A program made the position numbers and the translations under genes. The notes beneath the pieces were generated by a model. That model was not told the DNA's origin, searched no databases, and saw only the letters and a list, made by a program, of their open reading frames with translations. This document shows positions 10,934 through 46,942 of a stretch of DNA of 64,000 nucleotides, piece by piece. The first letter of the stretch is position 1. Every line of letters begins with the position of its first letter. Origin of the DNA: Bacilli bacterium (GTDB lineage Bacteria > Bacillota_I > Bacilli_A > RF39 > UBA660); the NCBI GenBank assembly GCA_017397685.1, contig JAFQID010000029.1, positions 1,931 through 65,930 of the forward strand, read 5' to 3'.

Positions 10934-11028
10934 TATATATAGTATTATGCGATATATATAGTATTATACGTTTTCCTAGGTATTACAAGATCTGGGATGA
11001 TTTGGTATATATAGTACATATAGTATTA
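10934..11028 (-). repeat. Direct repeats TATATATAGTATTAT, three copies
   Basis: Copies lie at 10934-10948, 10953-10967 and (with a 9-nt insertion) 11005-11028. Confidence 0.8.
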
Positions 11029-11053
11029 TAAGTACTATGTGTTCACGAGCGTT

Positions 11054-11075
11054 TGCACACAAATTGCACACATTA
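11054..11075 (-). repeat. Iteron pair, TGCACACA family
   Basis: TGCACACAAAT TGCACACATTA. It matches the cluster at 14860-14905. Confidence 0.8.
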
Positions 11076-11142
11076 TATCATCAGCATTCGTCTCTAAATA
11101 CATTATATCATGTTTTTATATATATTCATATTATTATCATCA

Positions 11143-11757: not shown

Positions 11758-11758
11758 T

Positions 11759-12679: not shown

Positions 12680-12843
12680 TTTTCTAATATCATTAGCTTT
12701 ATTTAATAATGGATCATTTATACTTAATATTCTTTTTTCTAATTTTGAAAAATTTATTTCTGATGGTTCTGTATGTGTATGTTTAATTATTATAAAACCT
12801 CCTTCTTAATTAAATCTTAACAAAGAAAGAGGTAATATATATG

Positions 12844-13326: not shown

Positions 13327-13409
13327 ATCACCACCAATGTATCAATCTTATATCATATATATTTATACTAATTATATTACTAAAATCTATTATTTATAAT
13401 ATCATTCAA

Positions 13410-14705: not shown

Positions 14706-14859
14706 AACTCCCTGCTTATTTTAAATTCGCTCAATTAATACTGATTATTATATCATAAAATAAAAACATTTCATATATAATACAAAAAAATATGTACTAA
14801 TGCTGACTTTTCTTTGTTTACATAACTAAAATCCTTTGTTTATAAGGGTAAATATAAAA

Positions 14860-14905
14860 TGTGTGCATAAATTTTTATATCATGCACACATTTTGCACAC
14901 AAATT
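14860..14905 (-). repeat. TGCACACA-family inverted and direct repeats
   Basis: TGTGTGCAT (14860-14868) and ATGCACACA (14882-14890) form an inverted repeat. The tandem TGCACACATTTT GCACACAAATT lies at 14883-14905. Confidence 0.8.
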
Positions 14906-14954
14906 AGCGTTTTTGGACAAAAATTGACCATTTTTATGAATTTTTTAATTTTTC

Positions 14955-15034
14955 AAAATCTCGCAAGCCCTTATTTTATGGACTTTCAGCTATTTACCAC
15001 AACATTGTTTGTATTTCTTGCCGGACCCACATGG
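14955..15034 (-). repeat. secA-tail copy A5 (45-mer at 14990-15034) with a degenerate terminator
   Basis: CCATGTGGGTCCGGCAAGAAATACAAACAATGTTGTGGTAAATAG encodes PCGSGKKYKQCCGK*. Ser is recoded AGT to TCC. An in-frame stop lies 13 codons upstream and there is no start. Confidence 0.9.
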
Positions 15035-15140
15035 CGGCGCAGTTTGGCAACCTCGAGATGCCTTGAGTCGTTAAATTCCTTTAAAACTCGTTAAAATTGT
15101 TTAATTTTAATCTCGAGACACCTCGGCAATGCCAGCAGAA

Positions 15141-15162
15141 CTTATCTAAAAACTTATCTAAT
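15141..15162 (-). repeat. Iteron pair, TTATCT family
   Basis: CTTATCTAAAAA CTTATCTAAT. It overlaps the pepF stop codon. Confidence 0.85.
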
Positions 15163-16842
15163 TTTATATTTCAATAATTTTTTTTCTAACATTTTAGATA
15201 AACATTTTATACTTTCTTCATCAAATGGATTATACATATTATATTTTTCAATAATACTTTTAAATGGATAATATGAAGCTATTGAGCCAATATTTTCAAA
15301 CATATTCATATCTTTTTCACACCCATCAAAAATAGCAAATGCTCCGAAATAAGATAACGCATAATCAATGTAATAAAATGGATCTAACATTATATGACTT
15401 TGTCTATAAAAATATCCCCCTGTTTCTAAATTTATGTGACCTTGATTATTTTTATCAAATTTATACTTTTTCGATAATTCTAACCATGTTATTCTTAAAT
15501 CCTCTTTTTTTAAATTTTTATTTGAGTATATTTGTTCTTGGAATTCATCAACCAAGCAAACATAAGGAATCACACTTACTAAATTATATATTTTCATAAA
15601 ACAATATTTTTTATAATCTTCTGCAGAAAACAAACTATCAGAATAATTCATACAAATAAGTTCCATTGCATATGAAAACATTTCTGCAATATCAAAAGTT
15701 GGATATTTTAATAACGAAGAAACTACATAATTTTTATCTTTAATTCCAGCATGATATTTTTGATATGCGTGTCCAAATTCATGAGAAACTGTTTGTATAT
15801 CTAAATAAGAATTTTTAAAATTACCAGTTATAACAGGCATAGCAGATTCAGTCAAATAATTAGTAATAGCAAAATTAACTTTATTATCTCTTGTTTCTAA
15901 ATCAATGTATCCATTTTCTAACATTTCTATATAAAATTTATATAGATCACTATCTATTTTTTTTAAAGTTTCTCCAAATTTAACCAATAATGCTTTTCCG
16001 TTAAATAATATTACAGGCATTTCTTTAAAATAAATAGTATCAAAATATTCAATATTTTCTATATCTAATTCTTGGTTTTTCCATTCATTTAGTTTCTTAC
16101 ATAAAGGAACTAGGTATCTTATGACACCATTTCTAAAATTAGATATATCTAAATAATTGTATCCAAATCTTCTTAATTTATACAAACTATATATTGAATA
16201 ATTTTCAAACCCTAGTTTACTAGCTATTTCATTTCTAACATTAACTAAATTAAATAAAATTTCATCTAATTCTGCTTGATTATTATAATAAAAATCGTTA
16301 ACAGCATCATGTGCTCGTTTTCTTACAGTTCTATCCTTATCAGAAAAAAATCCACTAACATAAGCCAAATTTCTTTCTTCACCATCAAATAATATTTTTT
16401 CTCTTATTATTTTTCTATATTCTGTTTTTAAATCACTTTCTACTTTTTGTAACTCTATTATTTTATCAGAAGTTATTCTTACTTGAAGTTCAATTGTGTT
16501 GAAAAAATTTTCTGGCACAATTTCCTTTAATTGTTCTTTAAATCTTGAATCTATACACAATTTATAAAAAGGTTTAAATAACAAATCAAATTTGGGCTTG
16601 TATTCATTCCAAAAAATTATTTCATGTTCAAAATACTCATCATTAGAATCTCTCATATTTCTTATATCAGCATAGTCATACATTTCTTCTATATGATTTT
16701 GAATTTTTATAATTTCCTTAAAAGTTGAAAGATATTTTTCATATGTTTGAGCAGTTTCTAATCTTGTTATTAATAAATTTAATTTTTCTTCTATAACTTC
16801 ATAATTTGGTCTAATATATTTTATTTGATCAAATTTAATCAT
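15154..16842 (-). CDS. pepF: Oligoendopeptidase F (M3B family)
   Basis: Zinc motif HEFGHAYQ in a roughly 560-aa protein. ATG at 16842 follows RBS GAAGGTGG; the track start at 16851 is GTG. Confidence 0.85.
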   Translation of the reverse strand: MIKFDQIKYIRPNYEVIEEKLNLLITRLETAQTYEKYLSTFKEIIKIQNHIEEMYDYADIRNMRDSNDEYFEHEIIFWNEYKPKFDLLFKPFYKLCIDSRFKEQLKEIVPENFFNTIELQVRITSDKIIELQKVESDLKTEYRKIIREKILFDGEERNLAYVSGFFSDKDRTVRKRAHDAVNDFYYNNQAELDEILFNLVNVRNEIASKLGFENYSIYSLYKLRRFGYNYLDISNFRNGVIRYLVPLCKKLNEWKNQELDIENIEYFDTIYFKEMPVILFNGKALLVKFGETLKKIDSDLYKFYIEMLENGYIDLETRDNKVNFAITNYLTESAMPVITGNFKNSYLDIQTVSHEFGHAYQKYHAGIKDKNYVVSSLLKYPTFDIAEMFSYAMELICMNYSDSLFSAEDYKKYCFMKIYNLVSVIPYVCLVDEFQEQIYSNKNLKKEDLRITWLELSKKYKFDKNNQGHINLETGGYFYRQSHIMLDPFYYIDYALSYFGAFAIFDGCEKDMNMFENIGSIASYYPFKSIIEKYNMYNPFDEESIKCLSKMLEKKLLKYKIR

Positions 16843-16954
16843 TAATACCACCTTCTTTATTATTATATCATATACCTGACCAGAACTATGCTGGGAATGG
16901 TCAATTTTCTATTTTTCTTTTATTTATAGGTATTTCAGAGTACTTATTAAATTT

Positions 16955-17003
16955 CTAGATAAGTTTTAGATAAGCAAAAAAACTATCTAAAGCTTATTTA
17001 AAC
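16955..17003 (-). repeat. TTATCT-family iterons (two inverted, two direct)
   Basis: TAGATAAGTTT TAGATAAGC is followed by ACTATCTAAAG CTTATTTAAAC. Confidence 0.75.
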
Positions 17004-17037
17004 GTACTTTTTACCATTTTTATGTAACATCAAAAAT

Positions 17038-17126
17038 CAAAAAAATCCTCGTAAAGCCTTTATTTACGGGGATTTTCTATATTATTTACCACAACATTGT
17101 TTATACTTTTTACCACTGCCACATGG
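17038..17126 (-). repeat. secA-tail copy A6 (45-mer at 17082-17126) with its terminator
   Basis: Encodes PCGSGKKYKQCCGK*. The hairpin is CCTCGTAAA/TTTACGGGG plus a T-run. Confidence 0.9.
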
Positions 17127-17290
17127 TAAAAAGATTCCTAGCTTTTGGTAGCACTTTATAGCTTTTGAGAGCGTTTGGCAGCCCTTTTTCGCCCTTTTTG
17201 GCTTCCGAGAGCATTCGGGAATCCTAGCTAAGGGTATCTAAAAAGGTATCTAATTTTCAAAAATTACCATTTTTCAAATATTTTTTGTAT
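17127..17290 (-). repeat. T1 element body, copy d
   Basis: Close to copy b. The hairpin lies at 17200-17224 and the tandem GGTATCTAAAAA GGTATCTAATTT at 17233-17256. Confidence 0.85.
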
Positions 17291-17296
17291 TACTGT

Positions 17297-17821
17297 TTAA
17301 CTCTTTAATTTTTCTTTAATAAATTTTATTTTTTTATCATTTTCTTCTCTGGTATTTTGATCATTAGATTCTCTAAAATAATCTAAAAATTCAAATTCTA
17401 TATATAGCCATTCACTTATTCCTTTAAAATATTCAATAATGCCATTAATCTCTTCTTCGTTGTCTTCTTTCGTTGCATAGCCTGTCAATATAAGGTAAAA
17501 TTTCTTACCTTTTAGTAATTCGTGATTATACAAAGGATTAAATCTATCTATTAAATTTTTTAATATTCCATTAATATTACTCATATACATTGGACTGGCC
17601 AATAGAATGTCATTTGCTTTTATTATTTCTTCATATACATTATTTGTAATAAAGTCATTTAAAACACAATGTCTTTCAAGATTGTCTTGACACCTTTCAC
17701 AACCTAAACAAAAATCCATTTTTTTGTTTGCTAATGATATTAACTTATCGCTGTCACTTTTAATATCATTTAATATTTTGTAACAATTCACTTCTCTATT
17801 AGAACAATTTATCAATAACAT
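17297..17821 (-). CDS. Flavodoxin-fold FMN reductase / iron-sulfur flavoprotein-like protein
   Basis: The N-terminus LLINCSNREVNCYKIL and the Cys cluster FCLGCERCQ...HC resemble the Isf/NADPH-FMN reductase family. Confidence 0.5.
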   Translation of the reverse strand: MLLINCSNREVNCYKILNDIKSDSDKLISLANKKMDFCLGCERCQDNLERHCVLNDFITNNVYEEIIKANDILLASPMYMSNINGILKNLIDRFNPLYNHELLKGKKFYLILTGYATKEDNEEEINGIIEYFKGISEWLYIEFEFLDYFRESNDQNTREENDKKIKFIKEKLKS

Positions 17822-17851
17822 ATATTTTTCCTCCTTTTAAAGATATAATAC

Positions 17852-18442
17852 TTATTCATTGTTTAATTCAAATAATTCTTCCTTAATATTTTCCCATGGA
17901 TATACAGAAACAAGATGATAATTTATTCCTAATTTTTTACACTCTTCTTCGGAAATTTGTTTTGTTTCATTTGTAATCAATCCCCAAGTTGTATAACAAA
18001 CATTATCTACATTGTTTCTATATGAATAATCTCTTGTTAATGATACATAGATTATTTTTACATTTTCACCAAATTTTTCTCTTAAAAGCTTTACTGCTAT
18101 ATTTGATGTGGTTCCTGTAACGTGATTTCCTTCAACAAGTAAAATGCATTCATCTTCTGCTACTTGTGTATTTTTTTTATAGTCCAAACCGACCTTTAAA
18201 TCTATATCATGAGTTTCGCTATTATGTTTCAATTGTATTGGTAACATATCTATGATATTAAACATATGGGATAATTTGACAGCAGGAACGCCTCCACCTC
18301 TTAATATTGGGGCTATATATTTAATTTTTAAATTATTTTCAGTTATATAGTTTTTTACATCTGAATAAATTTTATCTATAAATTCATCTATTCTTTTCCA
18401 AGATATCAAATCTAAATCCTTTTCAGTATATTTGTATTTCAT
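17852..18442 (-). CDS. Phosphoribosyltransferase-domain protein
   Basis: PRPP-binding loop CILLVEGNHVTGTTSN. Confidence 0.6.
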   Translation of the reverse strand: MKYKYTEKDLDLISWKRIDEFIDKIYSDVKNYITENNLKIKYIAPILRGGGVPAVKLSHMFNIIDMLPIQLKHNSETHDIDLKVGLDYKKNTQVAEDECILLVEGNHVTGTTSNIAVKLLREKFGENVKIIYVSLTRDYSYRNNVDNVCYTTWGLITNETKQISEEECKKLGINYHLVSVYPWENIKEELFELNNE

Positions 18443-18605
18443 AAAGTCATCTCCTAATAAATATTATATCATAATTTTTTTGCTTATATTTAATGAAAAA
18501 TAAATCATTTAATATCTGTGTTCTATGTCTATACAATTTTTTTGCCGAAATTACAAAGAATTTATATTTTATACAACTAAAATTTGAACAATAAATTTCA
18601 CAAAA

Positions 18606-18629
18606 CGTATGTTAAAACGTATATAAAAA
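18606..18629 (-). repeat. Iteron pair, GTATGT family
   Basis: CGTATGTTAAAA CGTATATAAAAA. Confidence 0.75.
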
Positions 18630-18663
18630 GCATTAATTATAGTTAGATAAATTGTAATTTGTA

Positions 18664-18882
18664 TTACTTATTCAAATAATATTTGTTGTCTTTTGTCTTT
18701 ACTAAAATCTTTTGTTTTTGTAATTTATCATTTATTCTTACAAATCTATCAGGTTTTCCAACACCAACTTCTTCTAATGTTTTTGCAGTTTCTTCACTAA
18801 TAGCACCACATAAATATAATTTTTTGATTATTAAATTTCTTCTTAATAAATATATATTTAACATAATTTTCAATTTTTCCAT
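18664..18882 (-). CDS. Hypothetical protein, 72 aa
   Basis: ORF directly downstream of the XRE gene. The motif ATAAATTGTAATTT follows its stop. Confidence 0.45.
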   Translation of the reverse strand: MEKLKIMLNIYLLRRNLIIKKLYLCGAISEETAKTLEEVGVGKPDRFVRINDKLQKQKILVKTKDNKYYLNK

Positions 18883-18890
18883 TTATCCAA

Positions 18891-19247
18891 TTAAAACACA
18901 AGTTGAATAATAATGAAAATCAACATTCCAATAATTCCACTCAATACTGCAAATTTAAGTCTTAATCTCTTACCATATTTTTCTATTAAATACAAACGAA
19001 GATGTTGTTCTGAAAAAAATTTAAAATCCTGTTCAAGCATTTTTTCTCCATAATAAAATTCGTTAATTGAAATTCCTAAAGTATTACACAAAGAATCCAA
19101 AATAGTATAATCAGGCAAAGATTTTCCATTTTCCCATCTACTAATAGATTTTGATGACACCTCTAAAATTTCGCTTAGTTGTTCTTGTGTGATATTTTTT
19201 TGTTTTCTGCATTCTAAAATAAATTTACCTATTTTTTCTTGGTTCAT
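18891..19247 (-). CDS. XRE-family HTH protein with a C-terminal TM helix
   Basis: MNQEKIGKFILECRKQKNITQEQLSEILEVSSKSISRWENGKSLPD. The N-terminus is paralogous to the gene at 43819-44685. Confidence 0.8.
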   Translation of the reverse strand: MNQEKIGKFILECRKQKNITQEQLSEILEVSSKSISRWENGKSLPDYTILDSLCNTLGISINEFYYGEKMLEQDFKFFSEQHLRLYLIEKYGKRLRLKFAVLSGIIGMLIFIIIQLVF

Positions 19248-19400
19248 TATTATCCCTCTTTTCTAAAACAATTGTATATTATATGCTTTAAATTTAACAG
19301 GACATAAACTGAGAGTTTATCAAATTACTATTTTTCTATTTAATTATATCATTTTTTTATAATTAATTTGTCAGAATTATGCTCAAAATCACTAAAAAAA

Positions 19401-19422
19401 CGTATGTAAAACGTATGTAGAA
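19401..19422 (-). repeat. Iteron pair, GTATGT family
   Basis: CGTATGTAAAA CGTATGTAGAA, identical to 8067-8088. Confidence 0.9.
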
Positions 19423-19457
19423 GCACTTTTTGAGGGAAAAGTACAACTTTTCAAAAA

Positions 19458-19545
19458 AATAAAAACCCCGGAAACCATTATATTTCTTGGGTTTGTGAGG
19501 CTATTTACCACAGCACTGTTTATACTTGCGACCGCTGCCACATGG
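19458..19545 (-). repeat. secA-tail copy A7 (45-mer at 19501-19545) with its terminator
   Basis: CCATGTGGCAGCGGTCGCAAGTATAAACAGTGCTGTGGTAAATAG encodes PCGSGRKYKQCCGK*. Confidence 0.9.
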
Positions 19546-19602
19546 CAACCTATTAAAACAACCAGGTAATTTTTTGTTTGAAAATTGGGCTTTCTTACTC
19601 AT
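19501..19602 (-). CDS. 33-aa SEC-C-motif micro-ORF, the only secA-tail copy with an in-frame ATG
   Basis: MSKKAQFSNKKLPGCFNRLPCGSGRKYKQCCGK. There is no obvious Shine-Dalgarno sequence, so expression is uncertain. Confidence 0.3.
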   Translation of the reverse strand: MSKKAQFSNKKLPGCFNRLPCGSGRKYKQCCGK

Positions 19603-19672
19603 AAGTTTTAATAACTTACACTTAAAAAATTGCAATAAAGTGATGTCTAATTTTCTAACAATGCGGTTTAAA

Positions 19673-19696
19673 CTTATCTAATAACTTATCTTAAAA
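19673..19696 (-). repeat. Iteron pair, TTATCT family
   Basis: CTTATCTAATAA CTTATCTTAAAA. Confidence 0.85.
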
Positions 19697-19735
19697 AATT
19701 GATTTGTTAATAATATAATATAGAAACTATAATTG

Positions 19736-20416
19736 CTAGAATTTTTTGACTAATTTTCTTTCAAATGATGTAACAGGGTATCCGTCTACTTTTGCACCTA
19801 AAAGTATTGTTATTTCTTTACCATTTTTATGTTTAACAAAGTTTTCAATATCTTCATCTACTAAATATATTAATTCAAATGGTAAACCATTTTGTCTAGA
19901 AATAATCTCTCTTGTTTTATCACTCAAACTATAACCATCTACATTTTCTCTTTTTTTACCAAGTACTATTAATGTATCAATTTCAGCATCATCAAAATAT
20001 GTTCCACTTTGAAATTTTTCTATTTCCTCTTCTTTATTAATGAAAGCCCATTGTAAAGTTAATAGTCCTTCATCGTCATCTTTAGTAGTATAAAAAACTG
20101 TTGGTTCGCCATATTCTTCACTTAATATTGAATAGAAATCACTTAAGGCAGCCATTTTTTCACCAAGTGAACTACCACAATGATTAGACCCCACACCTAT
20201 TCTTAAAAACTCATTTTCAGAAAATTTAAAATAAAATGGCAAACAGCATCCATTAAACATATATTCCCCATTATTTCTTCTGTATGAGGATAAATATTTA
20301 CCACTTGGAATTTCTATATACGTAGAACCATAAAAATCAATTTTATCTCCTAATTTCTTCTTTAGCTTACTTGCTAACAAATTGCAATCTTCCGCTTTTG
20401 AATATAACTCACTCAT
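19736..20416 (-). CDS. Hypothetical protein, 226 aa
   Basis: Long ORF with RBS AGGAGG and an upstream TGATATAAT promoter. I recognise no domain. Confidence 0.6.
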   Translation of the reverse strand: MSELYSKAEDCNLLASKLKKKLGDKIDFYGSTYIEIPSGKYLSSYRRNNGEYMFNGCCLPFYFKFSENEFLRIGVGSNHCGSSLGEKMAALSDFYSILSEEYGEPTVFYTTKDDDEGLLTLQWAFINKEEEIEKFQSGTYFDDAEIDTLIVLGKKRENVDGYSLSDKTREIISRQNGLPFELIYLVDEDIENFVKHKNGKEITILLGAKVDGYPVTSFERKLVKKF

Positions 20417-20520
20417 TTATAAAACCTCCTGATCTGAATATATTATATCATATTTTTTAATTGTTCAGGTATTCAATTTGTTTTACCATCATTATTATAG
20501 AGTCAAAATCAATAAAAAAA

Positions 20521-20542
20521 CTTATCTAAAACTTATCTAAAC
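20521..20542 (-). repeat. Iteron pair, TTATCT family
   Basis: CTTATCTAAAA CTTATCTAAAC. Confidence 0.9.
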
Positions 20543-20581
20543 GACTTTTTTGAGGTATAATTACCTAAAAATTGTAATCAT

Positions 20582-20666
20582 CAAAAAGCCCGCAATCCCT
20601 TTATTTATGCGGGCTTACAGGCTTATTTTCCACAACATTGCTTATATTTCTTTCCACTGCCACATG
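20582..20666 (-). repeat. secA-tail copy A8 (45-mer at 20622-20666) with its terminator
   Basis: CCATGTGGCAGTGGAAAGAAATATAAGCAATGTTGTGGAAAATAA encodes PCGSGKKYKQCCGK*. The hairpin is GCCCGCA/TGCGGGC. An in-frame TAA lies 2 codons upstream of the 45-mer. Confidence 0.9.
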
Positions 20667-20832
20667 GATTTTAGTTTTCGGGTTTTTAACAGCATTTTCG
20701 GGCTTTTGGGGGGCTTCTAGGATCCCTTTTTTGCCCTTTTTGGCTTCCGGCAACACTCGGGAAGCCTAGCAGAGAGTATCTAAAAAGGTATCTAAAATTT
20801 AAAAATTAGCCTTTTTCGAATATTTTTTGTAT
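20667..20832 (-). repeat. T1 element body, copy e
   Basis: The hairpin GGCTTCCGGCAACACTCGGGAAGCC lies at 20742-20766 and AGTATCTAAAAA GGTATCTAAAAT at 20775-20798, followed by the standard tail. Confidence 0.85.
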
Positions 20833-20862
20833 TTCAATTTTTTACATAATAAATTATTTATT

Positions 20863-21381
20863 TTATCTTCTTAATGATTTAACATATTCTTGATGTCTAA
20901 CTTCTTCTGGCTTTTCCAACCACCAATTGTTGTAGTCATTATTAATACCTTTTTCAAACAATTCTCTATTAGAATTTAGAAATGCCATCCAATCCTTATT
21001 AAATTCAATACACCACCAAAAATCAGTTCTTAATTTTTTAAAACCTGTATCCTTTGTTGATGAGGTTGGTATTTTTTCTAACTCTGAATATTCTTTTAAA
21101 TGATATGGGGTATTTATAAATGAAGCTAATCCCTCTAATATTTCATTTGATAATTCTTGATTTGAAAATAATATTAACTCATTATTTTCCTTTGTATATA
21201 TTCCCGTAGAAGTATATACATAACTATCAAAGTCATGCATAATTCTTCTGAAAGATCTTGGAATAGCACCAAATTCAAATTCAGCTGAACCCATATAATC
21301 TAAATCTACTACTCCATCTCTTCCAGTTAAACCGTTTCCATCTTTATTAAACTTTCCTCTTTGTATTAAATAGAACTTCAT
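20863..21381 (-). CDS. Hypothetical protein, 172 aa
   Basis: Long ORF with no recognised domain. Confidence 0.6.
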   Translation of the reverse strand: MKFYLIQRGKFNKDGNGLTGRDGVVDLDYMGSAEFEFGAIPRSFRRIMHDFDSYVYTSTGIYTKENNELILFSNQELSNEILEGLASFINTPYHLKEYSELEKIPTSSTKDTGFKKLRTDFWWCIEFNKDWMAFLNSNRELFEKGINNDYNNWWLEKPEEVRHQEYVKSLRR

Positions 21382-21488
21382 TAATTATCATCCCTTTGTG
21401 ATTATTTATTATAGCATAATTACTCATAAAAACAATAATTTAACCTAATAATTATCGTACTTCTTTATATTTATTATTTTATCATTCT

Positions 21489-21660
21489 AAACTCGTTTAC
21501 CATTGTCATTTTGGCAATGGACACAATTTCTTCTTTTTTCTTAATTAAATTTTTGCAAATCCTTATAAATAAAGGAAATATCGTGATTTATATCAATACA
21601 AAAATTTTGTATTTTAAGCCCATTTTGGGGTATCTAGATACCTTTTAGATACTCAGCGGA
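21489..21660 (-). repeat. T2 element, copy c
   Basis: The palindrome GGTATCTAGATACC lies at 21629-21642 and TAGATACT at 21646-21653. Confidence 0.85.
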
Positions 21661-21719
21661 AGGTATGTAAAAAGGTATCTAATTTTCAAAAATAAGCCTT
21701 TTTCGAACATTTTTTGTAT
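21661..21719 (-). repeat. T1 tail fragment, copy f
   Basis: GGTATGTAAAAA GGTATCTAATTT is followed by AAAAATAAGCCTTTTTCGAACATTTTTTGTAT. Confidence 0.8.
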
Positions 21720-21752
21720 TGCTTTTTTAACACATTTTTTATTAATTAAAAA

Positions 21753-22667
21753 TTATATTTTTAACTTCTTACAATTATTTTTAGAAGAATACTTTATCCT
21801 TTGATATAAATCACTTTTTAATTCTTCTGGTAACATAGGCATATTTGCCAATTCTGTCATAAAATTAGTCTTTGAGTAATTATCTAAAGGTTGATTTTCA
21901 AATTCCATACTCCAATCAAAAGCAAAATAATTATCTTCTTTTTCAAATTCATTTCCAGGATAATCTAATATAATTGCACTATATTGTCCACCAAAACTGC
22001 TTTCTCCGATTATTGTCGAACATGAAAATCTATTAAGATCTTCTTCTTTTGTTTCATAATCAATTGGAAGTAATTTATAACCACTTTCCCAATTAACACC
22101 AGTTAATATGTATCTATCTAGATTATAATATTTTTCTAATGCCTCTAATACAGCAGCATTATTCAAATTATTATTTTTTACATAAGTTAGTATCTTCCAC
22201 ACAGTAAATGTTGGAATCTTTTTTAACCACTGATTTTTTTGTCTTCTTTCTTCTAATCTTTCTATGGATTCTTGAAAGACTTCAAGAAATATTGGATTAC
22301 TTTTTAATGATTCAATATGTTTATATAAAACAGTATTTTCCATATTTTCATCTGTAAATAAAAATTCTTCATACGCATCAACTATATCATTACATACCTT
22401 TGCAAAAAGATAAGGTTTTTCTTGATGCATATTTTTTTTGCAATCACTTGATAATTGCGTTAATAATGACAACATTTCATCATCATTTGTAATTTTTAAT
22501 TTTTGCTTTTTTATTTTTTTAATTAACTCTTTATTTGATTTCAATTGTTTTTTATAATATTCTTTTTCAATCCCATCACCAATACACAAAGCTAATATTA
22601 AATCTCTATTTTCATAAATATATAAATATCTTTTTATTAATTCATCTTGAACTAAGTTAATTTCCAT
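21753..22667 (-). CDS. Hypothetical protein, 304 aa
   Basis: Long ORF with no recognised domain. It is the first gene after secA. Confidence 0.6.
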   Translation of the reverse strand: MEINLVQDELIKRYLYIYENRDLILALCIGDGIEKEYYKKQLKSNKELIKKIKKQKLKITNDDEMLSLLTQLSSDCKKNMHQEKPYLFAKVCNDIVDAYEEFLFTDENMENTVLYKHIESLKSNPIFLEVFQESIERLEERRQKNQWLKKIPTFTVWKILTYVKNNNLNNAAVLEALEKYYNLDRYILTGVNWESGYKLLPIDYETKEEDLNRFSCSTIIGESSFGGQYSAIILDYPGNEFEKEDNYFAFDWSMEFENQPLDNYSKTNFMTELANMPMLPEELKSDLYQRIKYSSKNNCKKLKI

Positions 22668-22751
22668 AAAACACTCCTATCAATTATTATATCACAAAAT
22701 TAGCAATTTTTATAAATAAAATACTAGAGTTTAAATATTAATGTTTTATGT

Positions 22752-22935
22752 CTATTTGGCAGTGGACACAATTTAATCTTTTTTTATTAGATAAATCTTC
22801 GCAATTCCTTATAATTAAAGGAAATATCGTTATTTTAAGCAATACAATTTTTTTGTATTTTTGCTTCAAAAAAAGGTATCTAGATACCTTTTAAATACTC
22901 ATCGGAAGGTATCTAAAAAAGTATTTAAATTATTT
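22752..22935 (-). repeat. T2 element, copy d, directly downstream of the real secA
   Basis: The palindrome GGTATCTAGATACC lies at 22875-22888, followed by GGTATCTAAAAAAGTATTTAAA. Confidence 0.85.
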
Positions 22936-22950
22936 TTATAATTTTAGGCA

Positions 22951-22979
22951 TCAAAAAAGCCCTTGTTTTACGGGCTTTA
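22951..22979 (-). terminator. secA intrinsic terminator
   Basis: AAAGCCC (22956-22962) pairs with GGGCTTT (22972-22978). A T-run follows on the minus strand. Confidence 0.75.
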
Positions 22980-22981
22980 TT

Positions 22982-25474
22982 TTACTTACCACAACATTGT
23001 TTGTACTTTTTGCCACTGCCACATGGACACGGATCATTTCTTCCAATCTTATTACCTACTGTCTTAGGTTTCTTTTGAACTTTTTCCTTCCCATCATTAG
23101 TTCTAATATTCTTAACTTCATGACGCTCTATATTTTGTCTAACCTCAGCTTTCAATAAAAATTGTGATATTTCCGCATTTGTAGAAGCAATCATTCTATC
23201 AAACAAATCAAATCCTTCTAAAGCATATACCTGAAGAGGATTAGATTGAGCATAACCACGAAGCCCCACACCTTCTTTTAAATTTTCCATCGCATCTAGC
23301 TGATTCATCCAATTTTTATCCAAAATTCTAAGAGTAATAGACTTTTCAAAATCATCTTGTAGTTCATCAGGAAAATCCTTCATTTTCTCATCATAATCTT
23401 TAATAACAACATCATATATCTTACTTATAAGTTCTTCATTATTTAAATCTTCTAAATCATTTTTTACTAATTTTTCTTTCTTAAGTAAATTAGCATTAAA
23501 AACCTCAACTATATTATCTAAATCATTACTAGTAATAACTCCCTCTGGGGCAATATGACTGTTTACTTCATAAGAAACAAAATCTTTAAAAGTATTAAGT
23601 ATTCTATCTCTTATACTCTCATTATCAAGTATTTCATTTCTTCTATCATAAATAATCTCTCTTTGTTTACTAATTACATTATCAAAATCTAATAAACCTT
23701 TTCTTCTGTCAAAATTGAATCCTTCAACTTTCTTCTGAGCAGTCTCAAGATTTTTAGAAATCATTTTATTTGAAATAGCTTGGTCTTCTGCCACTCCCAA
23801 AGAAATCATAACACTTTTCATTCTTTCAGAACCAAACTTAATCATCAAATCATCTTCCATAGATACAAAGAATCTAGAGGTACCAGGATCTCCTTGTCTT
23901 CCAGCACGTCCTCTTAACTGATTATCAATTCTTCTAGAATCATGTCTTTCAGTACCAAGAACATAAAGCCCACCTAGTTCTCTAACACCTTCACCAAGTT
24001 TAATATCCGTACCACGTCCTGCCATATTAGTCGCAATAGTAACAGCATTTAACTTTCCAGCATTTTCTATTATACTTGCTTCACGTTCATGGTTCTTAGC
24101 ATTTAATAGTTCATGCTTAACTCCAGCTTTAGTTAATAATTGATCTACAACCTCACTCATTTCAACAGAAGCAACACCAATTAAAACTGGTCTACCACTT
24201 TTATGTATCTCTTTAACAGTTCTAACAAGAGCTGTAAGCTTACCGTTCATTGATGAATAAATTAAATCAACAAGATCTTCTCTTATAACAGGTTTATTTG
24301 TAGGGATACATACTACATTAGTATTATAAATATCAACAAACTCTTCTTCCTCAGTTTTAGCCGTACCAGTCATACCAGAAAGTTTATTATACATTCTAAA
24401 TAAATTTTGAAAAGTTATTGTCGCTAAAGTCTTAGTCTCTTCATTAATTTCAACACCTTCTTTAGCTTCTAAAGCTTGATGTAATCCTTCACTAAACTGT
24501 CTTCCATGCATTAATCTACCAGTAAATGTATCAACAATAACAACTTTTCCATTATCAACAACATAATCAACATCTCTCTTAAATGCATAATTAGCAATCA
24601 AAGCTTTATCAATATTATGTACTAAAGAACTATTTTCAATATCATACAAATTAGTTAAATTCAAAACTTTTTCTAGTTTTTGAACACCTTCTTCAGTAAG
24701 AGTTACTTTCTTTGTTTTTTCATCTATTACATAATCATCTATTTTAAGATTTTTAACAGTTCTATCAGCATCTTTATAAATATTAGATGACTTTTGAGCA
24801 CCACCAGATATAATCAAAGGAGTTCTAGCTTCATCTATTAAAATAGAATCAACTTCATCAATTATCGCAAAATTTAGTCCCCTTTGAACTCTCCTTTCAC
24901 TTCTAACAACCATATTATCACGTAAATAATCAAAACCAAGCTCATTATTAGTTGTATAAGTAATGTCCGCATTATAAGCCTCTTTCTTTTCAAGAGGGGA
25001 TTTATCTCTAATATTTATGCCTACACTTATACCAAGAAATTCATAAATAGGTCCCATCCATTCAGCATTTCTCGTAGATAAATATTCATTAGTAGTTATA
25101 ACATGAACCCCAAGTCCACTCAGAGCATTTAGATATGCCGGTAAAACAGTAGTTAAAGTCTTACCTTCACCAGTTTTCATTTCAGCAATATTACCACGAT
25201 GAATCGCAACACCACCAATAAGTTGAACTCTGAAAGGTTTTTCTTTTAAAACTCTAAAACAAGCTTCTCTCGCAACCGCAAAAGCTTCTACTAAAATATC
25301 ATCAAGACTCTCCCCTTTTTCAAGTCTACTTTTAAACTCATCAGTTTTAGCTTTTAATTCAACATCTGTTAAAGACTGCATCTTATCATCTAATAACTCT
25401 ATTTCATCAACAATTTTGTTAATCCTTTTTAATTCTTTTGTTTCATAATCAAATATGCTTTTAAATAATTTCAT
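22982..25474 (-). CDS. secA: Preprotein translocase ATPase SecA
   Basis: DEAD-like motor motifs (MKTGEGKT, DEVDSILIDEARTPLIISG, TNMAGRGTDI) and the C-terminal zinc motif CPCGSGKKYKQCCGK. ATG at 25474 follows RBS GAGGTGG; the track start is 25486. Confidence 0.97.
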   Translation of the reverse strand: MKLFKSIFDYETKELKRINKIVDEIELLDDKMQSLTDVELKAKTDEFKSRLEKGESLDDILVEAFAVAREACFRVLKEKPFRVQLIGGVAIHRGNIAEMKTGEGKTLTTVLPAYLNALSGLGVHVITTNEYLSTRNAEWMGPIYEFLGISVGINIRDKSPLEKKEAYNADITYTTNNELGFDYLRDNMVVRSERRVQRGLNFAIIDEVDSILIDEARTPLIISGGAQKSSNIYKDADRTVKNLKIDDYVIDEKTKKVTLTEEGVQKLEKVLNLTNLYDIENSSLVHNIDKALIANYAFKRDVDYVVDNGKVVIVDTFTGRLMHGRQFSEGLHQALEAKEGVEINEETKTLATITFQNLFRMYNKLSGMTGTAKTEEEEFVDIYNTNVVCIPTNKPVIREDLVDLIYSSMNGKLTALVRTVKEIHKSGRPVLIGVASVEMSEVVDQLLTKAGVKHELLNAKNHEREASIIENAGKLNAVTIATNMAGRGTDIKLGEGVRELGGLYVLGTERHDSRRIDNQLRGRAGRQGDPGTSRFFVSMEDDLMIKFGSERMKSVMISLGVAEDQAISNKMISKNLETAQKKVEGFNFDRRKGLLDFDNVISKQREIIYDRRNEILDNESIRDRILNTFKDFVSYEVNSHIAPEGVITSNDLDNIVEVFNANLLKKEKLVKNDLEDLNNEELISKIYDVVIKDYDEKMKDFPDELQDDFEKSITLRILDKNWMNQLDAMENLKEGVGLRGYAQSNPLQVYALEGFDLFDRMIASTNAEISQFLLKAEVRQNIERHEVKNIRTNDGKEKVQKKPKTVGNKIGRNDPCPCGSGKKYKQCCGK

Positions 25475-43665: not shown

Positions 43666-43818
43666 TAAAATTCACCTAGTAACATTGTACCAAATTTCAA
43701 ACGAAAAGTATTTAGTTCTAATAAAAAATGTTGAATTATTATAAATTCCGTTCAAAAAAGAAATAAACCAACTCACTTATTATTATACACAAAATTATAA
43801 CTAATAAATTGTAATTTG

Positions 43819-44685
43819 TTATTTAGTAAAATAAAATTCAGCTTTTTGTTGATTCTCTAATGATAATCTTTTTAGTGTTCCATCTTGATGGACATCCTCA
43901 ATTTGCTTTCTTACATTTCTTGGAAATATATTTTTTATGTCTTTTGGATAATAACTTCCATCTCTTGGTATTCTAGAATCGATAACTTCAAATTCATCAT
44001 TTATTTTTTCTACTACAAACTTATATGGTATTGATGAACTACTTTCATTAATAATTTTTTCATCTTCATAATAAAAGCATTCTTCTAATACCCAAGCATA
44101 AACATAATACAAATTATTTTCTTCCTTTTCATCTATTAGAAAAATTCTCATTGATGCAAATGTTTTTGAATTCTCATGTCTTTTATATTCATCTCCATTT
44201 GCAACTATATAATTTTCTATTGAATTAATAATCTTTTCATTATCTAGATTAACCGGAGGAAAATAATCAAATCCCCATGTACTAAAAAATACCGGTTCAT
44301 TATTTCTCATTCTATTAATATCAATACTAAATAATGTTACATATACTAACAAAAACAAAATTATTATTCCTATTATTATTGCATATTTGTTTCTTGTCTT
44401 TTTTATTTGTTTCTGTGAATAGTTAATAGTATTTAAAACATTTTCCTCAAACTTATTTTGATATTCTTTTTTATCTATTTTTTCTCCACTAATAAGTTCA
44501 TTGATTGATATTCCTAATTCTTGGCATAATGGTTTCATTAATGATAAATCTGGCATACCTCTACCATTTTCCCATTTTGATATTGCTCTATCTGTAACAC
44601 CAATCTTATCAGCTAATTCTTGTTGTGTCATATTTTTTTCTTTACGAAGTTCTAAAATAAACTTACCTATTTTTTCTTGATTCAT
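43819..44685 (-). CDS. XRE-family HTH, TM helix and extracytoplasmic domain protein
   Basis: MNQEKIGKFILELRKEKNMTQQELADKIGVTDRAISKWENGRGMPD. ATAAATTGTAATTT follows the stop. Confidence 0.8.
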   Translation of the reverse strand: MNQEKIGKFILELRKEKNMTQQELADKIGVTDRAISKWENGRGMPDLSLMKPLCQELGISINELISGEKIDKKEYQNKFEENVLNTINYSQKQIKKTRNKYAIIIGIIILFLLVYVTLFSIDINRMRNNEPVFFSTWGFDYFPPVNLDNEKIINSIENYIVANGDEYKRHENSKTFASMRIFLIDEKEENNLYYVYAWVLEECFYYEDEKIINESSSSIPYKFVVEKINDEFEVIDSRIPRDGSYYPKDIKNIFPRNVRKQIEDVHQDGTLKRLSLENQQKAEFYFTK

Positions 44686-44774
44686 ATTTTTTCTCCTTTC
44701 GTAAATTAATTATAATATAGCTGTATTAAGAATACACCAAACGAACCGTAGAGTTAAACAAACTACTATTTGTT

Positions 44775-45260
44775 CTATAAAATAAATTGTATAACCAATC
44801 CAACTATCGCACATATAACTAATGCTAAAACTTCTCCAATTAAACATCCCTTAATATGAAACCAATAATTATGATATTCATCTACCATATCTTCAGTACC
44901 TTTAAATACAAAATATGGATCGTGGCAAAACCAAATAATATCCATTACAACAGCATCGTATATGTTTACTATTGTCCATAGTAAAAATCCATAACTAAAG
45001 CCTTCTATAAAAGTTGTATATCCATTAACATACCTTAATATTAAACTTATAATAGCTATAATTAAAATTGATGCTAAACTTTTAGCTAATATTTTATTTT
45101 TTTGTGTTGGTATTTTATTTTTATATTCATCCAAAGATTTTACTCTTTCCTGAATCTTTGGTGGATAATTATATAAAGTTTTAATTGGTTCTCTAGACAT
45201 TACATATACCATTATTGTAAATAACACACATAGTGCAATACTTTCTATTACTAATATCAT
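44775..45260 (-). CDS. Membrane protein, 161 aa, four TM helices
   Basis: ORF with hydrophobic segments. Its promoter region is homologous to the promoter region of the gene at 45650-46282. Confidence 0.55.
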   Translation of the reverse strand: MILVIESIALCVLFTIMVYVMSREPIKTLYNYPPKIQERVKSLDEYKNKIPTQKNKILAKSLASILIIAIISLILRYVNGYTTFIEGFSYGFLLWTIVNIYDAVVMDIIWFCHDPYFVFKGTEDMVDEYHNYWFHIKGCLIGEVLALVICAIVGLVIQFIL

Positions 45261-45447
45261 ATACTTCTCTCACTTTCAAATTACTATTTGTTGTTCAGTT
45301 TTATTATATCACAAATATGCAAAAAATTAGATTGCGAGAACGACTAACTTCTAGATTTTATAATGTTTTCGTTATATCGTGTACGCTGCATGTATGCTGT
45401 GTGTTATCTTTAGTTCAAAATTAGCCTATTTTTCATATTTTATTACA

Positions 45448-45535
45448 GCAAAAAAACCGTAAATACGGACTTTTTGAAACATTGAAATACGTAATTTTGT
45501 ACCAATATTGGTAATTTTTTAACGTTTACTAAATT
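45448..45535 (-). repeat. Displaced copy of the rpsI 3' end with its terminator (left direct repeat)
   Basis: Near-identical to 46478-46563. It includes TTAACGTTTACTAAATT (the last 17 nt of rpsI) and the hairpin CCGTAAATACGG. Confidence 0.9.
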
Positions 45536-45570
45536 AGCTTCCCTTTATTTATGCGGGTTTACAGCGTTTT

Positions 45571-45603
45571 TGTATGATACGCGTATGATACCTGTAGTAT
45601 CTT
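45571..45603 (-). repeat. Iterons, GTATGATAC family
   Basis: TGTATGATACG CGTATGATACC TGTAGTATCTT, an 11-bp period. Confidence 0.85.
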
Positions 45604-45649
45604 CAACTGACTCTGAGATATCTTAGTAATTTTGTTCTTATATAAGACA

Positions 45650-46282
45650 TTATTTTAAACCTAAATGTCTACTTAAAACTTTTTGTCCTTTTTCAGGATT
45701 AGTTGCAAATTCAAGCATTTGTTCTTTATTTATTCTTTCAAAAATATATCTTCCATATTTCAATATATCTCTAGCAGCGGAATAATTGCCAACATGAACA
45801 TAATATTCCATAGCATTATTTATTTGATTTATAATTATTTCCTGAAAAGTCATAGAGGTAAAATATGTATCTCTTGCAAATTTAATATTATCTCTCTCAT
45901 CATAAAATAAGGGAAATATCGGGCTATAAGTTATAGTTCCATTATTGATGTTAAAAACACCCGGTATTAGTCCATAAGGATCGCTAAGCTTCATACCAGC
46001 ATACCTTATCCCTTTACTTAATTCCTCTTCTCTTAAATTACATCCACCCATAGGTTTTAATGGATCATCGATTGAAATACAAGCACGTCTGAATTGATTT
46101 AAAGATTCATTATTACTAAAATCATATTTAGATAATTCTTCAGGAGAAATATAACTAAGAAAAAATCTATCATTATCTATTTCGTGCTTTTTATCCTCTA
46201 ATATTCTAGAAAAAATATCTTCTGTCGAACTTATTTCAATTTGTTCTAATCTTATAATTCTATCTATATATATCTGTGACAT
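45650..46282 (-). CDS. Hypothetical protein, 210 aa (cargo of the rpsI-locus cassette)
   Basis: Long ORF with no recognised domain. Confidence 0.6.
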   Translation of the reverse strand: MSQIYIDRIIRLEQIEISSTEDIFSRILEDKKHEIDNDRFFLSYISPEELSKYDFSNNESLNQFRRACISIDDPLKPMGGCNLREEELSKGIRYAGMKLSDPYGLIPGVFNINNGTITYSPIFPLFYDERDNIKFARDTYFTSMTFQEIIINQINNAMEYYVHVGNYSAARDILKYGRYIFERINKEQMLEFATNPEKGQKVLSRHLGLK

Positions 46283-46408
46283 AATATATTCCCCTTAAAA
46301 AAGAATTTGATAAACTTTATTATATCACAAATTCTCATTTTATCCTAATCACAGAACTATTGCCAGCACGACTAGCCTCTAGGTTCTATAAGGGTTTCTT
46401 ATACATTG

Positions 46409-46452
46409 TGTATGATACCTGTATGATACCTGTATGATACTTGTATGATACA
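46409..46452 (-). repeat. Iterons, GTATGATAC family, four copies
   Basis: TGTATGATACC TGTATGATACC TGTATGATACT TGTATGATACA, an exact 11-bp period. Confidence 0.95.
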
Positions 46453-46477
46453 AGCTAAAAGCTTAATTTCAGACAAG

Positions 46478-46563
46478 CAAAAAAGCCCGTAAATACGGAC
46501 TTTTTAAAATTGAAATACGTAATTTTGTACCAATATTGGTAATTTTTTAACGTTTACTAAATT
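46478..46563 (-). repeat. Native rpsI 3' end with its terminator (right direct repeat)
   Basis: The partner of 45448-45535. It overlaps the rpsI stop at 46547-46549. Confidence 0.9.
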
Positions 46564-46942
46564 GAGGTGCCCTTCTAGCCTTCTTAAGACCATATTTCTT
46601 TCTTTCTTTAATTCTTGCATCTCTAGTAATCATACCATTACTTTTAAGCGTAGATCTATTCTCACCATTAGCAAGCATTAAAGCTCTAGCAATACCTAAT
46701 CTAATAGCACCAGTTTGACCATTAAATCCTCCACCTTTAACAGAAACACTAATATCATATTTATTTAATGAATCAGTAAGTTCTAAAGGTTGAACTAAAT
46801 CCATTACTAAAGTCTCATAAGGCATATAATCTTTAACATCTTTTCCATTAACTACTATTTTACCTGTTCCAGAAGTCATAGTAACTCTAGCAACACTTCT
46901 TTTTCTTCTTCCAGTAGCAACCCATCTATTTTTCTCTGCCAT
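46547..46942 (-). CDS. rpsI: 30S ribosomal protein S9
   Basis: The protein ends ...[12 protein letters not shown]. It sits in the usual rplM-rpsI pair. Confidence 0.97.

Follow-up and report, generated by a model that had tools for sequence, protein, structure and literature searches.

The region behind rpsI was analysed in a 64,000-nucleotide (nt) stretch of a Bacilli genome of the RF39 lineage (contig JAFQID010000029.1, positions 1,931 to 65,930), which is called the window in the following. The target gene, rpsI (ribosomal protein S9, 131 amino acids (aa), 46547..46942, minus strand), was assigned from its open reading frame (ORF) and from the Pfam Ribosomal_S9 match of identical products. 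Behind it, likewise on the minus strand, lay cassette 1 (46546-45536), which had a junction on both sides and, according to the ORF list and family searches, contained one gene of no known function. Cassette 2 followed, with its leader at 45261..45518 and its cargo at 43819..45260 (both minus strand). A sister array with the same cassette plan was present behind secA (4400..23030, minus strand). In our interpretation, the region behind rpsI would be a hot spot of site-specific integration, in which tandem cassettes of 1-2 kb were placed, each with one to a few genes and without a recombinase gene.

Cassettes and duplicated gene ends behind rpsI

The plus-strand 17-mer TTAACGTTTACTAAATT, which represents the last 17 nt of rpsI, had exactly two copies in the window, at 46547-46563 and 45519-45535. 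On the gene strand, this tail reads AATTTAGTAAACGTTAA. The first copy (minus strand) is the end of rpsI itself and, from the comparison of junctions across species, is the proposed proximal recombination core. The second copy (minus strand), the displaced core, marked the boundary between cassettes 1 and 2; it was recognized by the repeat match and by comparison with the locus L007, to which the window was identical as far as 45516 and unrelated past that point. The repeat of tail and terminator could be aligned over 63 nt without gaps at 95% identity, or over 79 nt at 96% with one 2-nt gap. Weaker homology extended over 222 nt at 76.6% identity (46574-46359 against 45545-45331), and the extended -10 promoter TTTGTGATATAAT was common to both copies (46319-46329 and 45303-45313). 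The rpsI-proximal copy folded as a terminator of A-tract, hairpin and U-tract (z = -2.5), and in the distal copy a G-to-T change weakened the stem. The double occurrence of tail and terminator and the weaker homology beyond it, promoter included, had been described in an earlier sequence-only reading, and both descriptions were confirmed. The label "native" given there to the copy at rpsI was correct by position, but probably not in origin: the junctions of other species suggest that the last ~7 nt of the tail and all beyond it were delivered by the incoming cassette. A further displaced tail had been suspected near 43684. This candidate was rejected: TGGTACAAT belongs to the promoter, 5' untranslated region (UTR) and ribosome-binding region of an ADP-ribosylglycohydrolase gene, a sequence that was kept in all strains, and the variable region ended at 43823.

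In the direction of rpsI, a cassette started with the tail, followed by a post-tail segment with an intrinsic terminator, three to four iterons with an 11-bp period, and the conserved block CTTATAGAACCTAGAGGCTAGTCGTGCTGGC. The second half consisted of the extended -10 element TGTGATATAAT, a short 5' UTR, the cargo, a 3' arm of ~110 nt, the motif AAAAACGCTGTAAACCCGCATAAATAAAGGGAAGCT and the next tail. The 3' arm began with AAAATTACTAAGATA..CAGAGTCAGTTG and held two to three iterons. The leaders of at least six unrelated cargos could be aligned from the tail through the -10 box.

The post-tail segment of cassette 1 (46476..46546, minus strand) was of the variant named Xa and contained the palindrome TACCAATATTGGTA and, as judged by its fold, the intrinsic terminator AAAAAGTCCGTATTTACGGGCTTTTTT. 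Four variants of the post-tail sequence were found, and they co-varied with the following cassette. The perfect 14-nt palindrome (46519-46532 and 45491-45504) was present in the commonest variant and not in the other three, and it is dispensable for the junctions. Next came four type-I iterons, GTATCATACA on the gene strand (46409..46451, minus strand), which are proposed as arm-type integrase sites of the 5' (P') arm, the same iteron type being present at the other end of the cassette. On the plus strand, they were perfect copies of TGTATGATAC starting at 46409, 46420, 46431 and 46442, with a spacing of exactly 11 bp. The gene at 45650-46282 had been reported as bracketed by these four copies and by three more at 45571. 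The former were all present, but the latter only in part, with one perfect copy at 45571, one with a single mismatch at 45582 and a badly degenerate third at ~45593. The block CTAGAGGCTAGTCGT (46368..46382, minus strand), identified in the leader alignment, lay within a block of ~30 nt common to leaders with different cargo, and the extended -10 promoter of cassette 1 (46319..46329, minus strand) was predicted from its match to the consensus. The ORF of the cargo (210 aa; 45650..46282, minus strand) was followed by the 3' (P) arm (45536..45649, minus strand), which was conserved in L002, L009, L091, L092 and L228. This arm comprised AAAATTACTAAGATA (45619-45633), CAGAGTCAGTTG (45604-45615), iterons at 45582-45591 and 45571-45580, and the motif CTGTAAACCCGCATAAATAAAGGGA (45540-45564).

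The leader of cassette 2 also had the post-tail variant Xa, with the weakened terminator. It contained AAATATGAAAAATAGGCTAATTTT (45417-45440), type-II iterons CAGCATACA/CAGCGTACA (45380-45399), a CTAG block (45340-45354), the element TGTGATATAAT (45303-45313) and a 5' inverted repeat (45277-45291). The ORFs of its cargo encoded a predicted membrane protein of 161 aa (44775-45260) and an XRE-family helix-turn-helix (HTH) protein of 288 aa (43819-44685).

The iteron type was equal at both ends of one cassette and differed between cassettes. Type I was found in the 210-aa, GNAT and 214-aa cassettes, type II (CAGCATACA) in the ABC cassette, and type III (AGGCTACA) in the nucleotidyltransferase cassette of L228/L229. 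The match between both arms held for the three rpsI types and for three secA types. Two to three iterons were placed 40-65 nt before the core and three to four iterons 95-140 nt after it, at a period of 11 bp. If the ends of a cassette were joined in a circle, a site of ~380 nt would be formed, with two repeats on one side of the core and three to four on the other, which would be the layout of a lambda-type attP.

For the 210-aa cargo, no match was obtained in Pfam, NCBIfam or PADLOC. Its AlphaFold2 model had a predicted local distance difference test (pLDDT) score of 90, and the comparison of this model with PDB and BFVD by Foldseek gave nothing below E = 0.3, with a few non-significant matches to PD-(D/E)XK nucleases. 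The family of the cargo had 51 members, none of them annotated. The DNA of the unit had no match in GenBank phages or PLSDB plasmids, and the protein had none in GenBank phages. The locus of P0282, a distant cargo homologue with 51% identity, was rejected as a member, being an unrelated lepB-ylqF island (L235, 6349-15200) with a split large serine recombinase and without tail repeats. The cargo family therefore travels on more than one kind of island.

Strain differences and transfer between species

Ten loci from independent metagenomes encoded exactly the RpsI of the window, with flanks 98.7-100% identical to it. Among these contigs, the interval from rpsI to the ADP-ribosylglycohydrolase gene had five different contents and one minimal form. 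The window and L001 carried the 210-aa gene followed by those of the 161-aa and 288-aa HTH proteins; L007 the 210-aa gene and then that of a 654-aa protein; L002 and L003 an ABC transporter pair and then a TetR block; L004, L006 and L008 an AMP-binding enzyme; and L009 a GNAT gene and then an insertion sequence (IS). In L005 there was no cargo, and rpsI, tail and standard leader ran straight into the ADP-ribosylglycohydrolase gene. Displaced tails were found behind unrelated cargo, namely behind the ABC cassette (L002, 12427; also L003), the 210-aa cassette (L007, 11408) and the GNAT cassette (L009, 9973). Every displaced tail was preceded by a homologous arm of ~100 nt, and the sequence after the tail varied with the next cassette. 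In the species of the window, the 210-aa cassette was always first, before three different neighbours, which suggests insertion at the rpsI-adjacent site.

In the reference genomes of 30 related species (RpsI 60-83% identical), no displaced tail was found within 6 kb. The nearest reference RpsI, at 83% identity, came from a metagenome-assembled genome labelled Clostridium sp. (chromosome of 1.53 Mb); the closest named protein cluster was that of Clostridium sp. CAG:1000, and others bore the labels Bacilli, Erysipelotrichaceae or Tenericutes. L016 and L018 had a plain terminator resembling one of the post-tail variants, and L016 retained the synteny of ADP-ribosylglycohydrolase, Abi_2 and HtrA. 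The insertion model of the sequence-only reading, for which a duplication shared by all relatives would have been fatal, stood up to this comparison: strains with identical RpsI differed in content, and the 30 species had rpsI followed plainly by a terminator.

Cassettes of the same kind were also found in other species. In L239 (RpsI of 141 aa; context rpoA-rplQ...truA...rplM-rpsI), the cargo DNA was 96.7% identical to that of the window, compared with 63.4% for rpsI and 70.9% for rplM. The cassette began there at the rpsI stop: the host's own codons continued to AATTCTCAA, and the cassette sequence started from AACGTTAG, followed by type-I iterons, the block and TGTGATATAAT. In a third species (L228), the cargo was the fourth gene of a longer rpsI array, with DNA identities of 90.5% for the cargo and 73.6% for rpsI. 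Its first cassette was followed by a displaced tail, AATTTAGTAAGAGATAA, which was a synonymous variant (K-R-stop in other codons), as expected if a cassette replaces the gene end with its own copy. Moreover, at least seven cassettes were present in a fourth species (L233), and a fifth (L092) had a single cassette of this family between copies of a 44-nt direct repeat. The cargo was far more alike than rpsI and stood in the rpsI arrays of both species compared, which points to horizontally mobile cassettes targeting the rpsI stop-codon region. The units are therefore very probably cassettes that are inserted site-specifically and transferred horizontally.

The 17-nt tail was the sole sequence common to all proximal and distal junctions. 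The junctions limited the exchange point to the left of tail position 11 (L228), to the right of position 8 (L239) and to the right of position 6 (L009). From these three loci, the exchange would fall around the central GTAAAC of the tail.

The strain-variable region of the window ended distally with the 3' inverted repeat CAAATTACAATTTAT (43804..43823, minus strand), which directly followed the stop codon of the HTH gene, and the homology of all strain types resumed at 43823. Signs of decay were seen in other arrays. In L233, P-arm iterons were fused straight to the iterons of the next leader, and motif, tail and terminator were deleted, which illustrates how a distal junction can come to lack arm and tail. 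Two junctions of this array (1078-1250 and 2645-2843) resembled deletions between direct iterons, which would lock neighbouring cassettes together. Furthermore, IS3-family elements (HTH + rve) were found in the terminator loop of displaced tails (L009, ~10046; L095, ~6820; L147, ~1290), and another in a secA-type leader (L112, ~12365), suggesting that these elements prefer the hairpins. The iteron fusion in L233 and the IS insertions indicate that arrays fossilise from the distal end. On a short metagenome contig (L091, 1-720), rpsI seemed to be without its conserved C-terminus from ~60 nt before the end; the truncated gene was fused to a remnant of a cassette 3' arm, followed by an intact displaced tail, and this was either a lethal-looking deletion or a chimeric assembly.

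The secA array and the proposed mode of integration

The secA array contained nine secA tails, the native one included, and its arms matched the attL and attR of prophages. Its iterons were of the types AGATACC, ACATACG and AGATAAG, again the same at either end of a cassette. When IMG/VR was scanned with the secA-type iterons, contigs were obtained whose arms were 72-77% identical to the secA units of the window. In L114, secA was followed by one cassette, a displaced secA tail, a hairpin with the CCAAGTAAATAAAGGG motif and three AGATAAG iterons, and then by the 3' end of the gene for a 387-aa tyrosine integrase, an S24 repressor gene and a cro-like gene. This integrase had 1415 homologues at E below 1e-20, many of them with the arm-binding domain PF14657. 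In other species, homologues abutted the native secA end with the same arm, and for the secA-type arms integrases with PF00589 and PF14657 were found adjacent to the iterons. At the native secA tail or within secA arrays, prophages were located that encoded a tyrosine integrase and an S24 repressor and had a cro-like gene. Their P' arm consisted of the tail, the motif hairpin, two to three iterons and int, and their P arm of AAATTCGAAAAAGGCTA, two iterons, the block and the tail; both arms matched the secA cassettes of the window. One IMG/VR contig contained both ends of a ~37-kb prophage with AGATACC iterons on both arms, and its right arm was built like the 3' arm of the window's secA cassettes. 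These matches indicate that the secA array was built from att sites of a family of temperate phages targeting secA, and the iterons of this array are, by their agreement with the prophage arms, almost certainly arm-type sites. Truncated integrase genes were also found behind single cassettes at secA in another species (P0079), which means that decay occurs as well. The accretion of a prophage beside a cassette was seen at secA (L114), and none was seen at rpsI.

The two arrays of the window had several short sequences in common. The motif at 45540-45564 agreed with 20596-20620 in 24 of 25 positions, and in 28 of 32 in a longer alignment. At 20596 it was part of a complete 10-bp terminator stem, and at 45540 the 5' arm of the stem was missing, in line with the description of half a terminator beside the displaced rpsI tail. 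On the gene strand of the window, the motif was restricted to the cassette arm at rpsI and to positions beside secA tails (13 matches, with 4.8 expected), and it was kept in the rpsI-type arms of five other strains or species. The common element family proposed earlier was accordingly upheld against the objection that the fragment might be a merely frequent terminator sequence. The same motif formed a first shared module, AAAAACGCTGTAAACCCGCATAAATAAAGGGA at rpsI and AATAAGCCTGTAAGCCCGCATAAATAAAGGGA at secA (28/32), which was also found in L002, L009, L091, L092 and the prophage arms. The second module (AAATAT..GGCTAATTTT) was AAAATATGAAAAATAGGCTAATTTTGAA with iterons at rpsI and AAAATATTCGAAAAAGGCTAATTTTTAA with iterons at secA (23/28), and the third was a 15-nt inverted repeat flanking the cargo. 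With at least three short modules shared, the arm sets of rpsI and secA form one family. Module 1 was located after the secA tail and before the rpsI tail, and the arrangement of module 2 was reversed. The motif does link the two loci, as had been claimed, but with the correction that it lies upstream of the rpsI tail and downstream of the secA tail. The two systems are related by rearrangement, neither being a copy of the other, and their integrases are probably related but distinct. As for genes, only the XRE-family HTH was common to the rpsI and secA arrays; the HTH gene of cassette 2 with its upstream region was 70% identical to 19039-19339 of the secA array.

In both arrays, many cassettes had their cargo ORF or operon enclosed by the 15-nt inverted repeat. 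One copy, ATAAATAGTAATTTG, was placed 5-12 nt past the -10 box, where the mRNA would begin, and the other, CAAATTACAATTTAT, directly after the stop codon. It was observed at 45277-45291/43804-43818, 9223-9237/8425-8439 and 19321-19335/18647-18661, and also in L002, L004 and L006. The repeat may serve to clamp the ends of the mRNA, or as a second site of recombination or cargo exchange. The RNA clamp was not adopted as an explanation and the repeat stands as an observation: it was missing from the 210-aa cassette, and the predicted 5'/3' duplexes had modest energies of -10 to -21 kcal/mol, with z from -1.1 to -4.3.

The following mechanism is favoured, and its probability as a whole is estimated at about 65%. 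A circular cassette would carry an attP-like site of ~380 nt, made of P arm, core and P' arm. The P arm would be formed by the conserved start, two to three iterons and the 25-nt motif CTGTAA..CATAAATAAAGGGA; the core would be a copy of the rpsI end; and the P' arm would contain the terminator, three to four iterons of the same type, the conserved block and a strong outward promoter driving the cargo. Recombination of the core with the rpsI stop-codon region would insert the cassette, and the reading frame (K-R-stop) would be restored by the cassette's own copy. The prior junction would shift one position downstream and appear as a duplicated tail, and repetition would produce an array. The iterons would be bound as arm-type sites by a heterobivalent (lambda-type) tyrosine integrase, which a phage or integrative element belonging to the same family would supply in trans, and the cassettes may be active at present. 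Later, deletions between iterons and the insertion of IS would break down the array. It is considered rather probable that the cassettes are moved in this way, by an integrase that acts on the iterons in trans, and the prophages at secA are a precedent for it.

Several observations weigh against this mechanism. No recombinase was found by Pfam scan among the ~45 proteins of the window, nor at rpsI-type sites in ~40 contigs of five species with rpsI arrays. A tblastn search of integrases against 90 rpsI loci gave one unrelated match only, and 80 rpsI loci of other species were likewise negative. None of 80 IMG/VR relatives of the secA-type integrase was at an rpsI end, their targets being secA or tRNA-like sites. 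Four IMG/VR pattern scans (arm and tail, tail alone, degenerate tail, leader block) gave nothing, or streptococcal-type rpsI elements and chance matches. The readiness with which secA prophages were found, compared with none at rpsI, is an asymmetry that counts against the mechanism. Moreover, three iteron types with one core would require several integrases or relaxed arm recognition, and the limits of the exchange point leave 2-4 nt of common identity, compared with the normal overlap region of 6-8 bp; some junctions may have come about in another way or been changed by later mutation. Neither circular forms nor precise excision products were observed, and the 210-aa cassette has no recorded circular contig. 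The 161-aa cassette was directly at rpsI in no strain, and the distal junction of the window's array had no P arm and no tail after 43823. Finally, the position of the shared modules relative to the core is reversed between the two systems, so that the secA mechanism cannot simply be assumed for rpsI. The sequence-only reading had advised a search for the cognate recombinase elsewhere, and none turned up for the rpsI type in any source searched, which is the chief weakness of the explanation. IMG/VR matches to GTATCATAC iterons were discarded as unrelated phages with nothing in common beyond the repeat.

The cassettes might also be dead remnants of a full-size rpsI prophage or integrative mobilizable element (IME), which had lost its integrase and most of its genes, so that the array would be a record of past integrations and the small units would no longer move by themselves. 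Such decay is the published route to cis-mobilizable elements (CIMEs) (PMC5704250). It agrees with the truncated integrase at secA and with the decay visible in the core-removing deletions of L233, the degenerate tails of L228, the IS3-family elements in terminator loops and the tailless distal junction. However, random deletion predicts gene fragments and ragged ends, whereas at least six cargos shared a tidy backbone both from tail to 5' UTR and from stop codon to next tail, and no integrase fragment was detected in any rpsI array examined. Furthermore, the same 1-kb unit with its leader was found at the rpsI stop where core genes were 63-79% identical, and it was the first cassette in three downstream contexts of one species; both findings argue that the small unit itself travels. 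That the cassettes are dead remnants is considered unlikely.

An opposite view is that the cassettes are not debris but a class of miniature integrase-less elements on a standard 380-nt backbone, parasitising the integrases of temperate phages, or in short a "moron on an att site". This view is put forward tentatively, as a possibility well short of even odds. If it is true, cassettes would stack behind essential genes (secA, rpsI and possibly others) and would spread when a neighbouring prophage excises via the outer att site. The same chromosomal cores would be contested among several arm specificities, and small-genome gut Bacilli would have a functional counterpart of the integron, driven by phages, for the shuffling of accessory and defence genes.

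A dedicated host platform, similar to an integron, with a chromosomal recombinase of non-phage and non-lambda type, is very unlikely. The cassettes do resemble integron cassettes in their small size, single orientation and newest unit beside a fixed site, no phage-borne integrase was found for the rpsI site, and the 11-bp period would also suit the binding of a response regulator or Rep protein, in which case the iterons would be operators or replication iterons. Nevertheless, there was no IntI-like gene or other recombinase in the 64 kb around both arrays, the cassettes had their own promoters and 380-nt two-armed sites instead of folded attC sites, and the arms were homologous to those of tyrosine-integrase prophages with arm-binding domains. 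Also very unlikely is a variable island without site-specific recombination, which strains would exchange through transformation and homologous recombination in the conserved flanks (rpsI, leaders and downstream gene), with a tail from local duplication or unequal crossing-over, since the common distal boundary at 43823, the homology offered by leaders 65-80% identical and the single-nucleotide polymorphisms tracking strain lineages in the last 60 nt of rpsI, although in accordance with it, leave unexplained the tail copy directly after a conserved arm in every unit, the iteron match at unit ends, the synonymous tail of L228, the landing of the cassette in L239 exactly at the rpsI stop between flanks too diverged (63-71%) for homologous recombination, and the identity of the sister system's arms to prophage att sites.

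Comparison with known systems and other features of the window

The 3' end of rpsI had been named in the sequence-only reading as a target of integrative elements in streptococci, in agreement with the report of IMESag-rpsI, an element with a tyrosine integrase (PMC5704250). The cassettes resemble it in the use of the same gene end and in the restored reading frame. The tyrosine integrase was shown there, and at the present site it is deduced. Elements of the IMESag-rpsI type are ~9 kb long and have their own integrase, relaxase and replication genes, whereas the cassettes are without mobility genes. In the streptococcal-type IMG/VR contigs, ~50 nt of rpsI was duplicated, and there was no sequence likeness to the cassettes beyond the tail and no shared arm.

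The same study described that CIMEs, which are att-flanked elements without integrase, accrete in tandem (PMC5704250). Like them, cassette 1 is flanked by att-like copies and has neither integrase nor transfer genes. CIMEs and accretion at gene 3' ends are known, for example, beside ICESt1/ICESt3 at fda in Streptococcus thermophilus. An integrase-bearing element can join the tandem, as was observed at secA in L114. However, the described CIMEs are few, kilobases long and seen as decay products, whereas the rpsI cassettes are 1-2 kb long on a standard backbone with terminator and promoter, and their family has many cargos, forms arrays of up to eight or more, uses two essential genes and crosses species. 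The cassettes function like CIMEs in an accretion array combined with a lambda-type att system. What is new is that they are miniature, standardised and numerous, at two essential genes and in multiple species. The concept of CIMEs and accretion, which was based on a few streptococcal cases, is widened by this to include a standardised cassette family found in several species.

The likeness to a lambda-type attP lies in the two direct repeats on one arm and the three or four on the other, distributed over ~250 nt with a short core in between that the chromosome shares, and in the arm-binding domain of integrases of this family, which was found for the secA-type arms. In contrast to lambda attP, the site is attached to a single cargo gene instead of a phage genome, the P' arm carries a terminator and an outward promoter, and several arm specificities exist for one core. 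Tycheposons and the cargo-only satellites of Prochlorococcus islands are similar in that cargo arrays are split by partial copies of the target end, many are without a recombinase, and strains differ in content. Their hosts and recombinase families are different, however, their targets are mostly tRNA genes, and neither a standard promoter leader nor matching end iterons have been reported for them. Integron cassettes are likewise small, mostly of one gene and of one orientation, with variable content at a fixed site, and they carry GNATs, small proteins of no known function and defence genes. Unlike them, the present cassettes have no intI and no attI/Pc, have their own TGTGATATAAT promoter, and use double-stranded two-armed sites of ~380 nt in place of attC hairpins of 60-130 nt. 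The arrays started at rpsI-rplM and secA-hpf, and the P arm had no strong fold (z = -1.1), so that the features of an integron were lacking. Staphylococcal cassette chromosome (SCC) and pseudo-SCC islands at the 3' end of rlmH/orfX form tandem elements, some without recombinase, with direct repeats of the gene end. They differ in their large serine recombinases (Ccr), much larger size and absence of arm iterons. A literature search on integron-like arrays in Firmicutes and on secA as a phage attB gave nothing relevant.

Two essential genes within 25 kb each anchored a cassette array which, from its predicted promoters, would be self-expressing. The cassettes carried defence genes (AbiZ, WYL regulator), transporters, acetyltransferases, spare aminoacyl-tRNA synthetases and many proteins of no known function. 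Their content separated strains that were otherwise at least 98.7% identical at the rpsI locus. The flexible gene pool of the reduced genomes (~1.5 Mb) of uncultured gut Bacilli is poorly understood. If phage integrases do act in trans on the cassettes, gene capture would be simple and predictable, requiring a 17-nt docking site and a portable promoter module. This would aid the reading of strain variation in metagenomes, where assemblies break at such repeats, and the system could be a natural template for tools of site-specific insertion in bacteria that cannot yet be engineered.

Among the cargo of the secA array, an AbiZ-like abortive-infection protein (DUF6161; PADLOC E = 7e-34) was encoded at 12844-14705 (minus strand), beside a WYL-domain regulator, and an Abi_2 gene was located at 37687-38625, downstream of the rpsI array; from these genes, the arrays partly act as defence islands. 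A further secA-array cargo (4702-6291, minus strand) was a 529-aa paralogue of class II aminoacyl-tRNA synthetases (tRNA-synt_2b and HGTP anticodon domain, ProRS/ThrRS-like). It directly preceded the last secA tail and serS (2723-4003, minus strand), and it may be an antibiotic-resistant spare enzyme.

The sole reverse transcriptase (RT) of the window (247-1446, minus strand) was a defence RT of the UG26 class (PADLOC E = 4e-152), which was unrelated to the cassettes. It was situated just past serS, where the secA array has its far end, and was preceded by an RT-5 RNA motif (1472-1577, minus strand; 49.3 bits) and a nucleotidyltransferase gene (1949-2713, minus strand). Between the two arrays, an Agr-like quorum-sensing module was present at 26647-29450, with AgrB (26647-27258, plus strand), a GHKL histidine kinase (27392-28756, minus strand) and a LytTR response regulator (28689-29450, minus strand). 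At 60496-61637, there were four paralogous small XRE-family HTH genes of 79-91 aa, three on the plus strand and one on the minus strand, which account for a 238-nt repeat family at 60516-61628. In addition, a full-length OLE (ornate large extremophilic) RNA was detected at 57092-57575 (plus strand; 223.6 bits, E = 1e-61), followed by an ORF of 173 aa (57588-58109).

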